Virus record (IMG/VR): IMGVR_UViG_3300045988_037980
Direction: 5' to 3' (one strand)
Origin: a virus
Length of the DNA: 51,076 bases
The position numbers and the translations under genes are program-made. Positions 2,619 to 51,076 of this stretch are shown one piece after another. The notes beneath the pieces were generated by a model. The model ran no database searches. It was given only the letters and a program-made list of their open reading frames with translations, and had not been told where the DNA came from. Position 1 is the stretch's first letter. Every line of letters starts with the position of its first letter.

Positions 2619-3005
2619 TTAATTAGACAAATCTTCTATCAAGACCGCATCCAAATCTTCCGTAAACTGCAAATACTCCTTGTATTCATCAACTGCACTT
2701 TCGTTCACGGCAACGCCAAGAACGTGCTTGTTGTATGAATTAACAAGGTCAAATTCTGCCGTTTCGTCAATGACCGAACGGATAACGACCCGTTTAACAT
2801 TCTCTTTTGTGGCTTTATTGTAGCCACGCACTTCATAGCACTTCCACCCGATTTGGGTTTCTTCTTCTTGCCCCTCTGGTATGCCCATTTCGGGTTCTAT
2901 ATTCAAGCGGTAAAGCCAAGAACCGTCATTGTCATACTCCAAAACGGCGGGTTTCCCGTGCGCCATATCATAGTGCGCATTAGGTTCTATTAAATCTAAT
3001 TTCAT
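2619..3005 (-). CDS. Hypothetical acidic protein downstream of the DGR RT
   Basis: 128-aa ORF overlapping the RT 3' end by 26 nt. Acidic composition, so not Avd-like (Avd is basic and helical). Confidence 0.55.
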   Translation of the reverse strand: MKLDLIEPNAHYDMAHGKPAVLEYDNDGSWLYRLNIEPEMGIPEGQEEETQIGWKCYEVRGYNKATKENVKRVVIRSVIDETAEFDLVNSYNKHVLGVAVNESAVDEYKEYLQFTEDLDAVLIEDLSN

Positions 3006-4002
3006 ACGGAAATGTTTTTGAAAGTTTGTTCATTAAATTGAGTGAATCACAATACTTGCACCATCCCCACCAACTGCATATTTGCTGCTTGTAATCTTCT
3101 TTGCTTGGAACAATCTTGCGCTTGTTCAATTTTGCCACCCGGCGGCAAAGTTTCTGCTTGATAGACTTTCGCAACAATGTGTGCGTATGGTAAAAGACAT
3201 ATCCCAAAAAGTCAATTCCCCTTGAATCAACGGGAAAGACTTGGTAATTGCGTTTTACACGTAACTTTAACCCTTTCAGGTAAGCCCGGATTTCGTGTAA
3301 CAATTCATGCAATACTTCTTTGTTGGGTGCAAGAATGACTATATCATCGGCATATCGCCAATAATAATTCACACGTTTGGTTTCTTTCAACCAATGGTCG
3401 AAATAAGCCAAGACAAGGTTTGCAAAATACTGACTTAAATAATTGCCTATCGGCACGCCCTTTTCATCATCGACCGAATCAATGATTTCATCAAGCAATG
3501 CCAATAAGCGATTATCTTTTATTTTCCGCCTGACAATGCCTTTCAAGACATCATGGTGGATTGACGGATAAAACTTCTTTATGTCAATTTTCAGGCAATA
3601 GCGTGTTCCGTCCGGGTCTTGCTTCAATGCTTGTTTGACATCCTTTGCGCACTTGTGGATTCCACGATTCTTGATACAAGAATATGTGTTCTTGTTGAAG
3701 ATGGAAACCCATATCGGTTCAAGGACGTTCATAATGGCATGGTGCAAGATACGGTCGGGATAATACGGCAATCGGTAAATTAGCCTTTCTTTCGGTTCAT
3801 ATATGGTGAAAACATGATATTTGGATGTTTTGAATGTGCCGTTTTTCAAACTTTCGTGCAAGGCAATGATATTGGCATCCCGGTTCTTATCGTGTATCTG
3901 CACACCATAAGAACGCAACTTGCCTTTCCTTGCCTTTTCATCGGCAAGACGCAAGTTTTCAATGCTTATCACCCGGTCAAACAAATTGCCAATCCGTTTC
4001 AT
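2980..4002 (-). CDS. Diversity-generating retroelement reverse transcriptase
   Basis: RT motifs include IGNYLSQYFANL (DGR-type [ILV]GxxxSQ motif 4) and RYADDIVIL (YxDD). Size of 340 aa fits, and the adjacent TR/VR pair shows A-specific mismatches. Confidence 0.93.
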   Translation of the reverse strand: MKRIGNLFDRVISIENLRLADEKARKGKLRSYGVQIHDKNRDANIIALHESLKNGTFKTSKYHVFTIYEPKERLIYRLPYYPDRILHHAIMNVLEPIWVSIFNKNTYSCIKNRGIHKCAKDVKQALKQDPDGTRYCLKIDIKKFYPSIHHDVLKGIVRRKIKDNRLLALLDEIIDSVDDEKGVPIGNYLSQYFANLVLAYFDHWLKETKRVNYYWRYADDIVILAPNKEVLHELLHEIRAYLKGLKLRVKRNYQVFPVDSRGIDFLGYVFYHTHTLLRKSIKQKLCRRVAKLNKRKIVPSKEDYKQQICSWWGWCKYCDSLNLMNKLSKTFPYEIRFNRT

Positions 4003-4081
4003 TGTCCTTTAAGTTTGCTTGTATATTAGGATTCTTCGGGTTGCCCCTACCAAAACCGTTTTACCTAATTTGTTTTTTGCC

Positions 4082-4102
4082 GTTGGGGATTATTGCCCCA
4101 AC
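4082..4102 (-). other. Perfect 7-bp hairpin in the TR-to-RT spacer
   Basis: GTTGGGG (4082..4088) and CCCCAAC (4096..4102) with a 7-nt loop, between TR and the RT start. Confidence 0.5.
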
Positions 4103-4164
4103 TCATGCAACCCCGGTCGGGCTGCTTTTGTGGCAAGGTTTCCGATATGCAACTATATTTTTAC

Positions 4165-4280
4165 AAGCATAGCTGAGAACCGATATTCGCATTCGTATTC
4201 GTAGCCGTATTATTCGTATTCGCATACACGAACCCTGCATTCGCACCATTATTCGCATTACCGCTGAACAAAACGCCACG
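4165..4280 (-). repeat. DGR template repeat (TR)
   Basis: 116 nt aligned to VR1 at an offset of +210. The coding-strand frame reads RGVLFSGNANNGANAGFVYANTNNTATNTNANIGSQLCL*, rich in AAY Asn codons. All differences from the VRs lie at TR adenines on the coding strand. Confidence 0.92.
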
Positions 4281-4349
4281 ACATCGGACAACCTTTGTTT
4301 TATTTTTCATCCAAATTCCAAAATCATATTTGCCACTCGATTTGACGAT

Positions 4350-5816
4350 TTAAGCCGCTTCGATTTGCGGGTAAAAGCAAAGCCGAGAACCGAAATACGC
4401 ATACGTATGCGAAGCCGTATTACTCGAAAGCGCATACACGAACCCCGCATACGCACCATGATTCGCATTACCGCCGAACAAAACGCCACGTTCCGAAACT
4501 CCACTTGCCGGAATGTTGGTATAGAAGTAATCACAAAAATATGTGGTCGAACCCGCACCGACTTCAAGCGGCATGATTTCGCCATCCTCACCAAGAATCA
4601 TCTTCTTCACATACCCCTCTTTTCTTGGCAAGTTGCCACGCAATTCATAGTTGGTTGTGCCGGAACTTGTGAATGCCGCCGGGTCGTCACAAACGTAAAA
4701 TTCAGAAAGTCCGCCATCGGCTTCACTCTGAATAAGACATTTGCAACCATCCGTCCACTTCCATATATGCCCAAACGGGTTTTCTACACCACGGTAAGAC
4801 GGTACTTGCACAACCGTGCGTGTCACGGGCGTGAAATAGGTTGTGTTTGTCAATGCCGTTCCTGCCGCTGCGTTTGCTTTGCAAGTGTATAGCAAATCAC
4901 CTTGCGAAACATATTGCCCGGTGCTGTATGCGGTTGCTGCACTATATTCACCCATGTAATTGGCTTCACCGCTTGCGTCATATTCAAATGGCATGGTAAA
5001 TTCAACATACCCGGTCTTGTTGCCAAGGCTGTTTGTTGTGCCGCAAGGAACAAACGGATAATAGCCGTTGAAGTTTGACCACTTTGTGCCGTTAAGGGTT
5101 GTAACGCCTGACCCCAAGCCGCCTTGGTGATAGCCATCTTCCGTCAATTCGGCATTGAACGCTTCTTGCGAATTGAATGTGCAATACTCAACGGCAAAAA
5201 GCCACCACAATTTTTTGTGTGTTTGGTACAAGTTGCAATTCCATTCGGTCGTTCCACGCTTCCTTGCGTATGTGCGGAAATTGGTCAAAGATATAACCGT
5301 TGCGGGCATTCCAAGCTGTGAACGATATGTGCCGTCACGTTCTGCATCATTGTTGCCACCCCTGTAATCCGCATCTTTGTTCACAACCGCACACAATGTT
5401 TGTGTTGAACGCTGAACGGTCGCTTCCACCGCCGAAACATAGTCTTTGCGCCAAAGTTTGAAGCCCGGCAAAGGTTCGGTGGACTGCAAATGTCGGCTTT
5501 TGTCGCCGTCCGTTTCAAAGCGGACATACATATCGGGCAATTCATCCATGTATTGCCCATCCGCCCCGGTAAGGTTTGCCGCCGCCCCGGTGTCACGTTT
5601 CGTTGAATCATTGGCGTGAAGATAATAATTCACTTCGCCGTTGTCTTTCAAGATACAACGCCGGATAAGACTTTGCAACGGCAAGGATTGGTGAAGTTCC
5701 ATCTTGCCAATTCTTGTCGGGTGCGGATTTGACACCGTGGCATCCCATTCAATGCCGTAATAATAATCATAAGCGAATGTCGGCTTTGTGCTGCCGACCC
5801 CAATAATCAATCCCAT
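4350..5816 (-). CDS. DGR target protein 1: tail fibre / receptor-binding protein with a C-terminal C-type-lectin-fold-like variable region
   Basis: 488-aa ORF downstream of the Tal gene. The C-terminus ...GVLFGGNANHGAYAGFVYALSSNTASHTYAYFGSRLCFYPQIEAA is encoded by VR1. Confidence 0.88.
   Translation of the reverse strand: MGLIIGVGSTKPTFAYDYYYGIEWDATVSNPHPTRIGKMELHQSLPLQSLIRRCILKDNGEVNYYLHANDSTKRDTGAAANLTGADGQYMDELPDMYVRFETDGDKSRHLQSTEPLPGFKLWRKDYVSAVEATVQRSTQTLCAVVNKDADYRGGNNDAERDGTYRSQLGMPATVISLTNFRTYARKRGTTEWNCNLYQTHKKLWWLFAVEYCTFNSQEAFNAELTEDGYHQGGLGSGVTTLNGTKWSNFNGYYPFVPCGTTNSLGNKTGYVEFTMPFEYDASGEANYMGEYSAATAYSTGQYVSQGDLLYTCKANAAAGTALTNTTYFTPVTRTVVQVPSYRGVENPFGHIWKWTDGCKCLIQSEADGGLSEFYVCDDPAAFTSSGTTNYELRGNLPRKEGYVKKMILGEDGEIMPLEVGAGSTTYFCDYFYTNIPASGVSERGVLFGGNANHGAYAGFVYALSSNTASHTYAYFGSRLCFYPQIEAA
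4375..4490 (-). repeat. DGR variable repeat 1 (VR1) at the 3' end of the tail-fibre gene
   Basis: 15 substitutions relative to TR, at TR positions 4170, 4174, 4184, 4187, 4193, 4199, 4202, 4213, 4217, 4219, 4220, 4236, 4241, 4250 and 4265. Every one is at a plus-strand T, i.e. a coding-strand A. Confidence 0.92.
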
Positions 5817-11954: not shown

Positions 11955-11961
11955 ATCGTTT

Positions 11962-11978
11962 TGTTTTATAGTGAAACA
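11962..11978. repeat. 17-nt palindromic element, copy 2
   Basis: TGTTTTATAGTGAAACA, 7 nt upstream of the ATG at 11954. Confidence 0.7.
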
Positions 11979-11985
11979 TATTCGA

Positions 11986-14900
11986 TTATGACAAACCTTG
12001 CGACCTCAAAGAATCACCACTTGGGCGTTGCAATTCTCTGACCGCCGAAAGAATATCTTGAAGCAACCGATTGTAAGCCGTATTGTTCGCAATGGTGTTC
12101 AAGGCTTGCAGCGATTGCCGCAAGACTTGTGTTGCTTCCATTTGGTTTATTCGGATTGCGTTCATTTGCCCGGCGATAATGTCGGCGGTTTCTTCTGTTA
12201 CGCCTTTTACCGCACCTGTCAATGAATCTTCCGAATCATCGTCAATCTCCAAGTCTTTGAACAAATCCTTGTAAACATCCAATGCTTGATTGTAGTTGTT
12301 CGCCGCCGCTTGAACTTTGGCTTTGAAATCTGCAATCTCGGCATCCGTCAGACCATCAAAAATGAAGTTGTCACCCGACCAATACCCCATATCGGTGTAA
12401 AGGCTATCCAATGCGCTTTGCAATTGGTTTTCAAGAAACTTCTTTTTCAATTGGTTTACAATGGCATTTTGCAAGACTTCATTAACCGTTTGTTCAAAGG
12501 CATTCGCCGCATCTTCACCAGCTTTGAATGCTTCCGTAAGGGAATCCGCCAATGTTGATGCAAAATCCTTTGCGTTGGTCTGCAATATGTCATTGGCGAT
12601 TTCGTCATACATATCTTGAATTTGTCGGTCAAGTTCCGCTATTTGGTTTTGGTAATCTTGGATTTTCCCATTGTCGGTTTTCTTCTTTGATTGTTCATCG
12701 CTAATCATGCCACGCAAATGGGCTTGTTGTTGTTCCATGTTGTGAATCAAGCCCATTTGGTTGTTGTACACTTCCGCACCCAAAGCCTTATCAACCGCCC
12801 ATTCAAGTTGTTCATAAGACGCTTTCAGCTTGTCGATTGCTTCTTGGTGTCGCTTGATTGACTTTTCCGCCTTTCTGTCACGGCTGTTGAACAAGTCAAA
12901 TGCGGATGAAAGCAAGCCGATTGAACCTTGAATGATAGACAAAGGGTTGCCCGTTGCGATACCGCTTGCAACCTGACCCGCTCCATCCAATATGCCGCCA
13001 ATGTCACCGATAATGGCTTGCGTTTGCTCATCCATCGTGACACCCATTTTTTCAAGCCCGGACGTTACCGCATCGAATGCACCGCCGACAAGTTCAATTG
13101 CCCCGCTTGCGCTCTCAAACATATTGGTCAAGGCTTTTTTCTTGCTTTCATCATCCGCCGCCTTGCCATATTCCTTGATTGAGGAAATCAATGACTTGAA
13201 CGGGTTTCGTTCCCGTATTTCGTTCTGCATTTCCTTGATTTTGTTTTTCAAGGTTTCAAGGTCTTTCGGGTCAAACTCGATACCAAGGTAAGCCCCATCA
13301 AGATTGTTGATTTTATCAATCAATTCTTGAAGTTTCTTGGTACTTATTTCGTCAAGGTCGCCAAACATCAATTCCCAATCCGGGTGTGCTTGTAATTCGT
13401 CAAGGGCGAATTTTGAAAGTGCCTGTGCTTGCGCACGGTCTATCGCTTCGACCATTTCCGTGTTCCCGGCTTCCTGTGCCGCACGCCGCTTTTCGTCATA
13501 ATCATCAATGATTGCTTGCTTGCGTTCCTCAAACGTGCCATATTCGGCAAGCATCGCATCATAATCGACACCGCCAATGTTTCGGACATCCTTATTGTAT
13601 TGGTTTGTCCTGTTTTGAATGGCATTGTCAATTTCCGCACGTTGCGCATCCGTTGTCGCCTTTTCACGTTCACGCATCATCAAGGCGACATCATCATTGA
13701 ATTGTTGTTCAAGACGGCGTTTTTGCTCGACATAAGAAGCATATTCTTCAAGCAATGATTCCGTTTCCTGCCTTAATTGGTCTTGGGCGTTTTCTTCCGC
13801 TTCATTGAGGGCATCCGCCTTGGCATTGTCAAGTTCCGTTCCATCGCCGGACAATTCCTTGCGTTTCTGCTCAATGATGTTAAGCATATCAAGGACGGTT
13901 CGTGCATTGGTCAATTGGGCATTCAATTCTTCGTTGAATGCTTCCAATACGGTTGTCCGTGTTTCCTCTGCAATGGCATCATTGAGTTGGCGCAACTGCT
14001 TGTTTTGTGCCTTTGTGCGGTTTGCAACGTCAATTTGCAAAATTTGGTCACGTTGTTTCTTCAAGTAATCAATATATGTTGCCCCCTCTGCAAGCAATTT
14101 TGCAAATTCCTGATTGGCTGAACGGACAAGGACTTCATCGCCCGAATTTACCCACTTTTGGAAACGCTGATATTCGGCTTTATACTTGTTCAGCTTCTCA
14201 ATGAATGGGTCTTGGGTGTTGGTGCTTGTCTTGGTCGTTGTTGTCGCCTTTTTCCCGGTTATCGCATCCGCTTGCTTTTGCAGCTTCTCGATTTCCCGCA
14301 TTTTCGCCTTGTATTCATCATTATTAGTAAGATGTTTTAAGGCTTCTTGTTCCGTTTGAATCGCTTTTTCGATTGCCCCTAATGTTCCTTTTTCGTAAGT
14401 ATCAGTTCCGGCAATTCCTGCTTCTTTGAGTTTTTCCCAACCCGCACTTTCTGCGGCGGCTGCATCCTTGAACAATTTTTCTATATTGGTTCTTAAATCT
14501 ATAACCTTTTGTTCTTGTTCATCCTTTTTCTTATTATCAACTTCCACATAATACCCCGTGCCAAATGAACTTGTCTGAATCCATTGGCTTGTTTTTTCCG
14601 GCATCGCTTGAAGTTTTTGTTCTTCTTCAAGTAATGTCTTTACTTTTTCTTGGGCTTGCTGAACAAGGACAATTGCTTTTGCCTTATCTATTTGAGCCTG
14701 AACAAACGCATCCTTGCCCTTATTAAGCAAGTTTTCAGCATCTACCACATCAAGCACCGCCACACCCAATTCATCAAAAGCTGCCTTGTTTTCCTCAATG
14801 AACTTCTTTTTGGCATTCAAATCATCACCAAGCGCATTCCATTTTAAGGATAATTCTTCAATGGTTGCAATAGGCTTATAAGCATTTTCGGCAAGGGATT

Positions 14901-35587: not shown

Positions 35588-35595
35588 TGTTTTTT

Positions 35596-35612
35596 TGTTT
35601 TATAGTGAAACA
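35596..35612. repeat. 17-nt palindromic element, copy 7
   Basis: TGTTTTATAGTGAAACA, 8 nt upstream of the ATG at 35587. Confidence 0.7.
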
Positions 35613-35619
35613 TTATTTT

Positions 35620-36663
35620 CTAAATCTTCGATAACCATTGTTCCCATATTCTGCTTGCGACTTGCGCCATCATCACGGGTGGCACGGACATTCCGCACAC
35701 ATAATGGGGTGACTGACCGCCGAAATTGTAGTCTTGCGGAAAGGATGAAATGCAACACACTTCACTTTTGGCAAGGAATTTCGGTTGCACAAAATGAATT
35801 AAGCATGATTCCTTGCTTGCAAGGGTCGGGCATATCCTGTCCGGGTACGCATAAGCCTGATTGAAATTTGACCCTTTGCCGAATAACCTTTCATTCGCAT
35901 CACCTTGGTTCGTGTCGCCATCTTTGCGGTTATCCCACAAAAGACGCATCACCTTTGAATTGATTTCACGCCCCGAATAGTCAGCGACTTCACCAAACAT
36001 TATTGGCGGCTCGTTGAAGTCAAGGTCTAATTTGGGTACTTCGTTGAAAAGGTCTTGCCTTATCAAAAATGGGGTGGCAAGGTCTTTCCGTAAACAGACA
36101 AAGAAAACCCGTTCACGCCTTTGCGGAACACCCATCTTTTGAGCGTCAAGCAACCAATGTTGGCAATAGTACCCGGCATCCTCGAATCCATCATATATCC
36201 GCCTTACATAATCCTTGGCTTCACCAAGCAACAATCCCTTGACGTTTTCGGCAACAACGACTTTGGGTTGCAGTTTCTTTGCAAGGTCTATGAAGTCGAA
36301 AAACAAGGTATCTAATACTTGCGCCGCTTGCCCCTCTCGAAAGTGTTTCATCTTTCCCCATGCTTCTTCACGGCTTCCGGCAACCGAAAACGTGGAACAA
36401 GGCGGCGACCCGTCCAGCACGTCAAGGTTGTACAATTCGGGCGGCAAATCCGTTCTATCCTTGAATGTCTGTATCGGTTCAAGGAAAGGGAACTTGGGGT
36501 TGTGGTTCTGACAATATGCGTACATCATGCGGTGGTCTATCTCATTGCACCCGATTACATCGAACCCGGCAAGTTTGTAACCCATAGAACTGCCCCCCCA
36601 CAAGCAAAACATGAAAAGACCGCCCCTTTGTCTTTGGTGAAGTGGGCATCTTTCAAAGTCCAA
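35620..36663 (-). CDS. dcm: DNA (cytosine-5)-methyltransferase
   Basis: GGSSMGYKLAGF (motif I region), GSPPCSTFSVAG (PC motif), AENVKGL (ENV) and QRRERVFFV (motif VIII). Confidence 0.9.
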   Translation of the reverse strand: MDFERCPLHQRQRGGLFMFCLWGGSSMGYKLAGFDVIGCNEIDHRMMYAYCQNHNPKFPFLEPIQTFKDRTDLPPELYNLDVLDGSPPCSTFSVAGSREEAWGKMKHFREGQAAQVLDTLFFDFIDLAKKLQPKVVVAENVKGLLLGEAKDYVRRIYDGFEDAGYYCQHWLLDAQKMGVPQRRERVFFVCLRKDLATPFLIRQDLFNEVPKLDLDFNEPPIMFGEVADYSGREINSKVMRLLWDNRKDGDTNQGDANERLFGKGSNFNQAYAYPDRICPTLASKESCLIHFVQPKFLAKSEVCCISSFPQDYNFGGQSPHYVCGMSVPPVMMAQVASRIWEQWLSKI

Positions 36664-42129: not shown

Positions 42130-42137
42130 ATCCGATT

Positions 42138-42154
42138 TGTTTTACTATGAAACA
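42138..42154. repeat. 17-nt palindromic element, copy 8
   Basis: TGTTTTACTATGAAACA, 8 nt upstream of the ATG at 42129 and 4 nt after the stop of 42159..42779. Confidence 0.7.
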
Positions 42155-42158
42155 CATT

Positions 42159-42779
42159 CTATTTGAAAAGGAACACTTCGTTGTACAAGTCGGCAAACAT
42201 TTCACCGAATTGCCGTGCCCGATTTGCGGTCTTAAAGCAAAGCCGAGAACCGAAAGCCGCATACGTACCCGTAGCCGCAGAATTCGTAGGCGCATACACG
42301 AACCCCGCAGCATCCCGGTCATATACAAACCAAGGATAATACTTGTATTGGTTTTGGTTGCTGAAATCCGGCACGAAATCATCCGCTTTGTTCCATGCTT
42401 CCGCAATGGTGAACAACTTGTTCAATGCGGCAAGGGCTTTGAGGTGTCGGGGGTTCATTTCATCAACCAAATGGGCAACGCCGTTCAAGTCCAAAGAATT
42501 GTTTGATTGCAGCTTCTTTGTAACGGCAAAGTCCGCATTGGGCTTGCCGCCAAGATACTTCCGGGCTTCCTCGTAGTTGGTCACACATTCGTTGATTTCC
42601 CTTTCCTCGATTTCGTCAAGGGTGAAATCAAACGGGGTCAAATACCCCTCATCGTCTGAATCCAATTCATCGTTGTTGTCCGTAATGTAACCATCCATCA
42701 CATCAACGGCTTCAATCTTTGAATCAAATTTTCCAATGGCTTTTTCAATGCCTTTTTGTCTTAAAAGAAACTTCTTCAT
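42159..42779 (-). CDS. DGR target protein 2: small non-structural protein carrying a remote variable repeat
   Basis: 206 aa with an acidic N-half and no signal peptide. The segment ...AAGFVYAPTNSAATGTYAAFGSRLCF is encoded by VR2. Confidence 0.8.
   Translation of the reverse strand: MKKFLLRQKGIEKAIGKFDSKIEAVDVMDGYITDNNDELDSDDEGYLTPFDFTLDEIEEREINECVTNYEEARKYLGGKPNADFAVTKKLQSNNSLDLNGVAHLVDEMNPRHLKALAALNKLFTIAEAWNKADDFVPDFSNQNQYKYYPWFVYDRDAAGFVYAPTNSAATGTYAAFGSRLCFKTANRARQFGEMFADLYNEVFLFK
42235..42310 (-). repeat. DGR variable repeat 2 (VR2), about 38 kb from the TR
   Basis: Aligns to TR 4165..4240. The 15 substitutions are at TR 4170, 4174, 4184, 4186, 4187, 4193, 4198, 4199, 4208, 4210, 4211, 4219, 4220, 4236 and 4240, all at plus-strand T (coding-strand A). 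Shares the 3' flank CCGCAAATCG with VR1. Confidence 0.85.
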
Positions 42780-50977: not shown

Positions 50978-51076
50978 CATCTTGGGCTATGTCCTGCAAC
51001 CCGTTGAAAGTGTAATGGTTTTGGTATTGTATGGTATTCTATGATATTAGGATTATTAGTGCCTGTCTCTCCGCAA
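50978..51076. repeat. 99-bp direct terminal repeat, copy B
   Basis: Identical to 1..99. Confidence 0.97.

Follow-up and report, generated by a model that had tools for sequence, protein, structure and literature searches.

Two variable targets of an Avd-less diversity-generating retroelement in a temperate phage of Bacteroidaceae

Introduction

The virus record IMGVR_UViG_3300045988_037980 of IMG/VR (51,076 nt; this whole stretch is called the window below) carries on its minus strand a gene for a reverse transcriptase (RT), a non-coding template repeat (TR) and a tail-protein gene that ends in a variable repeat (VR1) similar to TR. Is this locus a working diversity-generating retroelement (DGR), which proteins does it diversify, and what marks them as targets? 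Our answer is that the window very probably contains an active, Avd-less DGR of the 'lineage 3' type, residing in a complete 50,977-bp temperate phage of Bacteroidaceae. The system is a clean and well-supported example of a known DGR type, and the DGR itself is not new. The points worth following are the role of the protein that bears a second variable repeat (VR2), the motifs by which targets are recognized and the rule obeyed by adenines that precede guanine.

Template repeat, variable repeat and reverse transcriptase

The core of the cassette consists of four features.

2980..4002, minus strand: DGR reverse transcriptase gene, 340 aa, with motifs VPIGNYLSQYFANL and YWRYADDIVIL
4165..4280, minus strand: TR, 116 nt, non-coding, with 30 adenines
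4375..4490, minus strand: VR1, at the 3' end of the tail-protein gene, within its last 46 codons
4350..5816, minus strand: target gene 1, encoding a 488-aa tail protein, putative receptor-binding protein (phrog_5302 'tail protein', 1.3e-118)

TR lies 162 nt upstream of the RT start, and VR1 lies 94 nt upstream of TR. Over 116 aligned nucleotides TR and VR1 differ at 15 positions, all 15 of which are adenines in TR. If mismatches were random with respect to base, with 30 adenines in the 116-nt TR, the chance of such an outcome would be ~(30/116)^15, roughly 1.5e-9. Translated in the frame of the VR, TR reads RGVLFSGNANNGANAGFVYANTNNTATNTNANIGSQLCL with a stop straight after the repeat and includes 10 AAT codons, which bears out the statement of an earlier note on this DNA that TR is rich in AAY (Asn) codons. 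Every figure of that note for the coordinates of RT, TR and VR1, for the 162- and 94-nt gaps and for the 15 adenine-linked differences was reproduced. Its statement that a tail gene ends in the VR of an adenine-specific TR/VR pair also holds, given the phrog_5302 match and the synteny with Bacteroides phage Versailles, whose tail protein is 35% identical to target 1. The note labels its repeat VR1 without describing a second one; VR2, the lack of Avd, the structured spacer RNA and the rule for adenines before guanine are additions of the present analysis.

The RT open reading frame (ORF) is intact and contains IGNYLSQ and the catalytic YADD. Pfam recognizes in it only the generic RVT_1 domain (5.5e-21). 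Against the PDB, the top match is the DGR RT of a Bordetella phage (8ub7, E 3.5e-48), aligned full length over residues 2-328, and the next matches are retron-type and group II RTs at ~1e-20 (best 1.4e-20). The protein also matches phrog_1423 at 6e-129. Its nearest relatives among deposited phages are RTs of crAss-like phages (50-61% identity), and the Versailles RT is 44% identical. These comparisons confirm, at the level of sequence, that the RT is of the DGR type, as the earlier note had predicted from its motifs; retron and group II RTs are far more distant from it than the Bordetella bRT is.

A quite different explanation would be that the repeats have diverged by ordinary diversifying selection or by gene conversion between paralogous repeats, next to an RT from a retron, a group II intron or a Drt defence system. 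The RT does show weak, sub-threshold similarity to the NCBIfam models of group II, Drt3a and retron RTs, with which it has the RT fold in common. However, none of the group II, Drt and retron models of NCBIfam comes near its cut-off (e.g. 128 versus 300 bits), and the best structural relative of the protein is a DGR RT. The pattern of variation described next bears on the remainder of this explanation.

Variation of VR1 among related genomes

Related loci were fetched with an exact 24-mer from the spacer between VR1 and TR, yielding 32 contigs: 14 from IMG/VR, 17 from metagenomes and one from a metagenome-assembled genome (MAG) of Bacteroidaceae. Positions in TR are counted from window position 4280 downwards. 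Apart from one T/C polymorphism at TR position 71, TR is identical in 29 of the 32 loci, and in two of the three others it differs in register only, from indels in the spacer. Among the 31 copies of VR1, 29 are distinct. They vary at 26 TR-adenine positions, located in 16 codons (10 AAT, 4 ACG, 1 TAT and 1 ATC), and changes at non-adenine positions are limited to six strays in the 31 copies (~0.2%). About half of the 26 freely variable adenines are changed in any one VR1; the mean share substituted is 49%, in agreement with the mutation density of ~50% published for Bordetella and Bacteroides DGRs (bioRxiv 10.1101/2024.11.15.621889). The polymorphism at position 71 is shared by the two repeats: five of the 14 IMG/VR loci have C in TR, and the same five have C in VR1, showing that information flows from TR to VR. 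Contigs with RTs 99-100% identical bear completely different VRs, so that VR turnover outpaces ordinary divergence.

Selection or gene conversion does not confine changes to TR-adenine positions, synonymous sites included, nor does either account for the direction given by the TR polymorphism carried into VR1. Taken with the affinity of the RT, this leaves an explanation by selection, gene conversion or another kind of RT with hardly any credence. Judged from the differences between assembled genomes, the DGR is active on evolutionarily short timescales. This agrees with the view of the earlier note that the system is active or recently active, TR being invariant and VR1 hypervariable only at TR-adenine positions. 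The same note had proposed to look for polymorphism confined to these positions in mapped reads, and such polymorphism is what the assembled genomes, used in place of reads, contain.

Another possibility is that the DGR has decayed or become frozen, the repeats being relics of past activity of an element that no longer homes in the window genome. The evidence of activity indeed comes from between-genome differences, many incomplete cassettes occur in phages related to the crAssphage LMMB (PMC7290462), and two pairs of related contigs have the same VR1 and one pair has the same VR2. Against this, the RT is uninterrupted and retains YADD, while TR, the IMH-like elements and the spacer RNA (both described below) are intact and conserved, and near-identical RTs accompany entirely different VRs. 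A frozen element is thus quite improbable, and we retain the reading of an active DGR.

One related locus has an unusual TR (L034; ERZ779699 NODE-382, coverage ~1.3), in which a normal 5' part is followed by a VR-like 3' end, GGCTCTCGGCTTTGCTTTATCCCCGCCGCGTAA. It is probably an assembly chimera of TR and a VR from a co-occurring relative, though it could be a recombinant.

A second variable repeat in the early region

A repeat search of the window uncovered a third TR-like copy at 42232-42350, far from the cassette.

42235..42309, minus strand: VR2, distal second variable repeat, aligned with TR positions 41-115 only (the 3' 75 nt)
42159..42779, minus strand: target gene 2, encoding a 206-aa protein in the early recombination/replication module (phrog_11581, function unknown)

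Over TR positions 41-115, VR2 differs from TR at 14 positions, each of them an adenine in TR (14/14). It is located 24 codons before the stop of the 206-aa ORF, at a distance from TR of ~12.8 kb on the circular genome versus 38 kb on the linear map. With a 25-mer just upstream of VR2, nine related contigs were retrieved; the ten copies comprise nine distinct sequences, with flanks 100% identical and variation at TR adenines between positions 55 and 96. By arithmetic, the number of potential peptides is ~2e15 for VR1 and ~5e10 for VR2. Yet another candidate VR, at 32430-32470, was discarded: over 41 nt its identity is 71%, non-adenine mismatches are numerous, and the ORF around it encodes an unrelated membrane protein.

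The 3789 clusters of the VR2 protein family have neither names nor a Pfam domain, and hypervariability in the family is limited to residues 162-176. Target 1 and the VR2 protein are similar only across the 32-residue VR segment. The VR2 gene belongs to an early leftward operon, where it separates the genes for RecT and an MBL-fold hydrolase from the replication genes. In BI-TP1, a phage of the LoVEphage type, gp84 is homologous to the VR2 protein (28% identity, E 1e-13); gp84 carries the distal VR of that phage's own DGR and differs from the corresponding TR at adenines only. Bacteroides phages as unrelated as the window phage and those of the LoVEphage type thus have this family in common as a distal DGR target. 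A distal second target is already known in kind, first reported in 2025: four Bacteroidota prophage species carry a second, distal VR near counter-defence genes (PMC12629997, Nature 2025).

The two-target system is also a clean natural data set for the question of why a phage diversifies a small early-region protein. One conceivable answer is that the VR2 protein is an early-expressed intracellular binder respecified by the DGR, e.g. to track host defence or immunity proteins, rather than a virion or receptor-binding protein. The DGR would then be a two-purpose diversifier, one element serving both host entry and counter-defence. A lesser novelty of this Avd-less lineage would be the near-deterministic change of adenine to G before G described below (~95% even at fourfold-synonymous sites). 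We regard this reading as tentative, possible rather than probable.

A related arrangement was observed in locus L173 (IMGVR_UViG_3300029589_000340), where the RT-proximal VR, at ~1316-1825, is in a protein with the signatures of the VR2 family (EYRYFPWF, VVLFGG) and not in a tail protein. A small protein of the VR2 type can thus serve as the cassette-proximal target.

Candidate elements marking the targets

The 3' ends of the repeats contain sequences resembling the initiation of mutagenic homing (IMH) element of VRs and its IMH* counterpart in TR.

4361..4391, minus strand: IMH-like element GGTTCTCGGCTTTGCTTT (4374-4391) and downstream motif CCGCAAATCG (4361-4370) at VR1
42220..42251, minus strand: IMH-like element and CCGCAAATCG motif at VR2
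4164..4181, minus strand: IMH*-like 3' end of TR (GGTTCTCAGCTATGCTTG), with three positions unlike the sequence common to both VRs

The 18-mer GGTTCTCGGCTTTGCTTT closes VR1 and VR2 alike, and the 10-mer CCGCAAATCG comes 3-4 nt after it. TR has three mismatches to the 18-mer and lacks the 10-mer. The fixed 3' differences between TR and the VRs are at positions 106, 110 and 116 and are kept in all related VR copies except for VR2 of locus L021. This copy retains the A of TR at position 106 but not at position 110, so that, at least sometimes, the 3' limit of transfer lies between these two positions. The 10-mer is in different reading frames at VR1 and VR2, which implies that its conservation acts at the DNA level. 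The window contains three copies of the 10-mer versus 0.31 expected. The third copy, at 29500-29509 (minus strand) near the 3' end of the large-terminase gene, has no adjacent IMH-like 18-mer and is probably due to chance. The 18-mer and the 10-mer are natural candidates for IMH-type recognition elements. For the question of what marks a DGR target, two VRs with a common 18-mer and 10-mer in different frames constitute a natural data set.

In the regions after VR1 and VR2, a search for a Bordetella-type hairpin gave no significant folding (z-scores -0.7 and -0.4, respectively). Several related lineages carry GC-rich GNRA hairpins (GCGTAAGC-type) at the position after the VR. We also observed that the hexamer AAATCG occurs three times just after VR1 (4320-4370, minus strand), partly past the stop codon, and that it is found after the VRs of related lineages as well (L061-L096).

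Adenines followed by guanine

Four of the 15 differences between TR and VR1 are uniform across related VR1 copies: A to G at positions 15, 44 and 106 and A to T at position 110. They do not look like the outcome of free adenine mutagenesis and may instead represent an IMH/IMH*-type asymmetry or changes fixed by context. Positions 15, 44 and 106 (window 4265, 4236 and 4174) are the only TR adenines that precede G, and they are G in every aligned VR1 (31 copies at positions 44 and 106, and 30 at position 15, where L032 has a deletion). The change at position 44 is synonymous, affecting the third codon position (GCA to GCG).

The effect of the following base was assessed in a broader sample of 96 unique TR/VR pairs with 58 distinct TRs, from loci whose RTs are 51-100% identical to that of the window (L048-L208). 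TR adenines preceding G correspond in the VRs to G in 95.9% of cases and to A in 4.1%, never to C or T (n=193). Adenine is retained in 32%, 60% and 49% of cases before A, C and T, respectively. At fourfold-synonymous sites, adenines before G give 56 G versus 3 A; most of these counts come from the same homologous site, each VR being an independent outcome. The Bordetella RT is reported to have an A-to-G bias and a reduced error rate at adenines whose 3' neighbour in the template is G (bioRxiv 10.1101/2025.03.24.644984; cf. PMC12875486). The lineage of the window agrees with the Bordetella enzyme in the A-to-G direction but not in the near-completeness of the change (~96%), the rate reported for Bordetella being much lower. 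The pattern could result from a stronger context effect of the RT, from repair of G-T mismatches after integration or from selection at the DNA level. In practice, the rule constrains both the prediction of DGR sequence space and the design of synthetic TRs.

Spacer RNA, absence of Avd and ORFx

The non-coding DNA on the two sides of TR measures just 94 nt and 162 nt, and a Pfam search of 13 small ORFs for members of the Avd family gave no match. Two other features are found in the vicinity of the RT gene.

4013..4136, minus strand: structured non-coding RNA between TR and the RT gene, an expanded variant of Rfam RT-17 (RF03020)
2619..3005, minus strand: ORFx, 128 aa, acidic, overlapping the RT stop codon (phrog_11557, 6.5e-14)

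The spacer RNA is laid out as a closing helix, TTGCC/GGCAA, a two-hairpin insertion and then the GGUAG...CGAAG helices. The spacer of the window matches RT-17 at 4011-4094 with 22.2 bits, under the gathering threshold of 40.4 bits, whereas the spacers of loci L103 and L116, with RTs 57-59% identical, reach 51.2 and 46.4 bits, above this cut-off. In an alignment of 18 spacers, the lineage of the window has an insertion of ~47 nt, forming two hairpins, within the first RT-17 hairpin. A five-helix model fitted to the 18 spacers has 94.8% of cells paired and compensatory changes in 14 of 27 pairs; none of 500 shuffles reaches the observed value, and slid controls are 30-59% paired. By analogy, this RNA likely corresponds to the region of the Bordetella spacer by which the RT is positioned.

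Versailles and the crAss-like phages cr55_1 and cr50_1 each have a homologue of ORFx at the corresponding place; the similarity is weak but consistent. In IMG/VR, 64 of 80 loci with ORFx homologues have an RT within 4 kb upstream; the 16 others, with distant homologues, do not. All close relatives of ORFx overlap the RT stop. The genes that follow the RT in LMMB, vir525 and Perkons are unrelated to ORFx, and hhalign detects no similarity between ORFx and the Avd of BPP-1 (probability 0.4%). As a general rule, a role of ORFx as the lineage 3 substitute for Avd is ruled out by its absence after the RT in these three phages and by the 16 loci without an RT. ORFx may travel with the DGR cassette. 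For the question of how DGRs function without Avd, the lineage provides a natural data set: the RT-17-type RNA is conserved, and a small ORF often, though not always, accompanies the RT.

These elements can be combined into a model of transfer. TR (4165-4280) and the downstream RT-17-like RNA (~4136-4013) would be transcribed together. The RT (2980-4002) would copy TR into cDNA, by a priming step that we presume, and misincorporate at template adenines. The cDNA would replace VR1 (4375-4490), within the last 46 codons of the tail protein, and its 3' 75 nt would also replace VR2 (42235-42309) in the 206-aa early-region protein. Directionality probably comes from GGTTCTCGGCTTTGCTTT and, 3-4 nt on, CCGCAAATCG, which are present after both VRs and altered in TR. 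Presumably, no accessory protein is needed. That target 1 binds a receptor is likewise putative in this model, as is any role assigned to target 2.

Variable domains and the identity of the tail target

Several observations weigh against the main reading, an active DGR of the lineage 3 type. Activity is deduced from differences between assembled genomes and not from read-level heterogeneity within one population, four of the TR/VR1 differences are fixed rather than variable in related copies, and, unlike in Bordetella, neither VR of the window lineage is followed by a strong hairpin. The expected fold of the variable domains did not emerge either. The AlphaFold2 model of the 488-aa target has a mean predicted local distance difference test score (pLDDT) of 38, which does not confirm a C-type-lectin fold, and the model of the VR2 protein stays below 50 over the VR. 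Pfam searches for a lectin or FGE-type domain gave no match even at E up to 10, and single-sequence and shallow-profile searches of the PDB with the VR domains returned nothing. The poor quality of the models is explained by the available homologues being too alike (for the target, all at least 73% identical). In a Foldseek search of the PDB with the model of the VR2 protein, nothing had an E below 2. A profile of 36 C-terminal-domain sequences matches only three Mtd variants in the PDB, in VR-to-VR register and with marginal E values of 0.12-0.22; hhalign of the C-terminal domain of the target with Mtd gives a probability of 11%. The assignment of a C-type-lectin fold to the VR domain, as in the CLec3 class of DGR variable proteins, is taken from the literature and is not confirmed here.

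Target 1 belongs to a family with >7,800 clusters (formed at 90% identity). Over its C-terminal 145 aa, target 1 has 31% identity with gp12 of BI-TP1. Its gene is located at the distal end of the tail module, after the tape-measure gene and directly after the gene for a 1356-aa tail protein with a Prophage_tail domain. The DGR could be real and its target nonetheless another distal-tail or accessory protein, in which case diversification of VR1 would not concern host range. In favour of this alternative, the proposed function of target 1 derives from gene position and a 'tail protein' family label. However, the position itself, right after the large Prophage_tail-domain protein, fits a receptor-binding protein; the homologues in Versailles, crAss LMMB and BI-TP1 are themselves targets of DGRs and bear tail or tail-collar fibre annotations; and the sole PDB profile matches, albeit weak, are Mtd receptor-binding proteins aligned VR to VR. 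An accessory role is accordingly unlikely in our judgement, and we continue to treat target 1 as a putative receptor-binding protein.

We observed that target 1 carries an insertion of ~49 aa (residues ~279-337, window ~4806-4982, minus strand), which contains AATAYSTGQYVSQGDLLYTCKANAAAG and is present neither in the 439-aa majority form of the family nor in Versailles. It is the sole high-confidence part of the AlphaFold2 model (pLDDT 80-88, residues 290-330). We take it to resemble a small carbohydrate-binding module; a Pfam search of the insertion gave no match.

Comparison with known systems

Lineage 3 DGRs are defined by the order target-TR-RT without avd and occur in Bacteroides and relatives (Wu et al. 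2018, NAR, PMC5758913). The DGR of crAssphage LMMB was placed in this lineage by its authors (PMC7290462). The window shares with them the order target gene-VR(IMH)-TR(IMH*)-RT (with candidate IMH and IMH* elements), the lack of avd and hosts among Bacteroides and relatives; as far as gene order can tell, its cassette has the architecture of lineage 3. The RT is 53% identical to that of LMMB, whose tail-collar fibre protein is homologous to the N-terminal half of target 1 (29% identity, E 4e-25). By contrast, the carrier in the window is a 51-kb temperate phage with an integrase and is not crAss-like, and its DGR has the extra VR2, the ~47-nt RNA insertion and, after the RT, ORFx, which is not found in LMMB.

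The gene order is that of Versailles (ON453897), where a large tail protein, a small ORF, the tail-protein target (35% identical), TR, RT, the ORFx homologue and lysis genes follow each other as in the window. Versailles has a 115-nt VR/TR pair spaced 202 nt, versus 210 nt in the window, and all mid-repeat differences between its VR and TR are at adenines. The two systems differ in that the RTs are only 44% identical and the Versailles TR has no 'CAG' adenines; in addition, the last 8.9 kb of the Versailles record contain no third repeat copy and, by tblastn, no homologue of the VR2 protein.

BI-TP1 (PQ571265) resembles the window in that its DGR has a tail-protein target and, at a distance, a second VR within a small gene of the early region. 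Its gp84 lies among methyltransferase and DNA-metabolism genes, which fits the published distal VRs near counter-defence genes (PMC12629997). Unlike the window phage, BI-TP1 is an unrelated phage of 71 kb, its VR2 corresponds to the full length of TR and not just to the 3' 75 nt, and its RT is not among the close matches.

The likeness to BPP-1 (Mtd, Avd, TR, bRT) lies in the full-length homology of the RTs, adenine-specific transfer from TR to VR, a VR that encodes the C terminus of a tail protein, a putative 3' asymmetry of the IMH/IMH* type and the weak VR-to-VR profile match to Mtd. The differences are as follows: the DGR of the window has no Avd, its TR directly follows the target gene, its spacer RNA belongs to another family (RT-17), a strong GC hairpin after the VR is lacking, there are two targets, and adenine before G nearly always becomes G.

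The phage genome

The two ends of the window are an identical direct repeat of 99 nt (1-99 and 50978-51076), indicating a circular, complete assembly of 50,977 bp. Early and regulatory genes encode an integrase, repressor-like regulators, an anti-repressor, SbcC-like and RecT recombination proteins, replication proteins and a methyltransferase. Structural and lysis genes encode the terminase, portal, major head protein, tape measure, tail proteins and endolysin. Copies of the locus are found inside contigs of 65-135 kb, one of them a 124-kb contig of a Bacteroidaceae MAG. The integrase and the copies within larger contigs, including that of the MAG, support a temperate lifestyle and a Bacteroidaceae host, in keeping with the temperate Bacteroidota phage proposed by the earlier note. 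A megablast search of the 3.5-kb cassette against 50,697 deposited phage records gave no match, so that none of them is a close relative at the DNA level, and a scan of the window for tRNA genes found none. The phage lineage is very abundant in human-gut assemblies.

Finally, a conserved motif of ~31 nt with the minus-strand core TGTTTCACTATAAAACAA is present in four copies (11957-11987, 29449-29479, 35591-35621 and 42133-42163). At least the copy at 11957-11987 immediately precedes the start of a minus-strand gene, and one of the others comes after the VR2 stop codon. The motif may be a phage promoter or a translation-initiation element.

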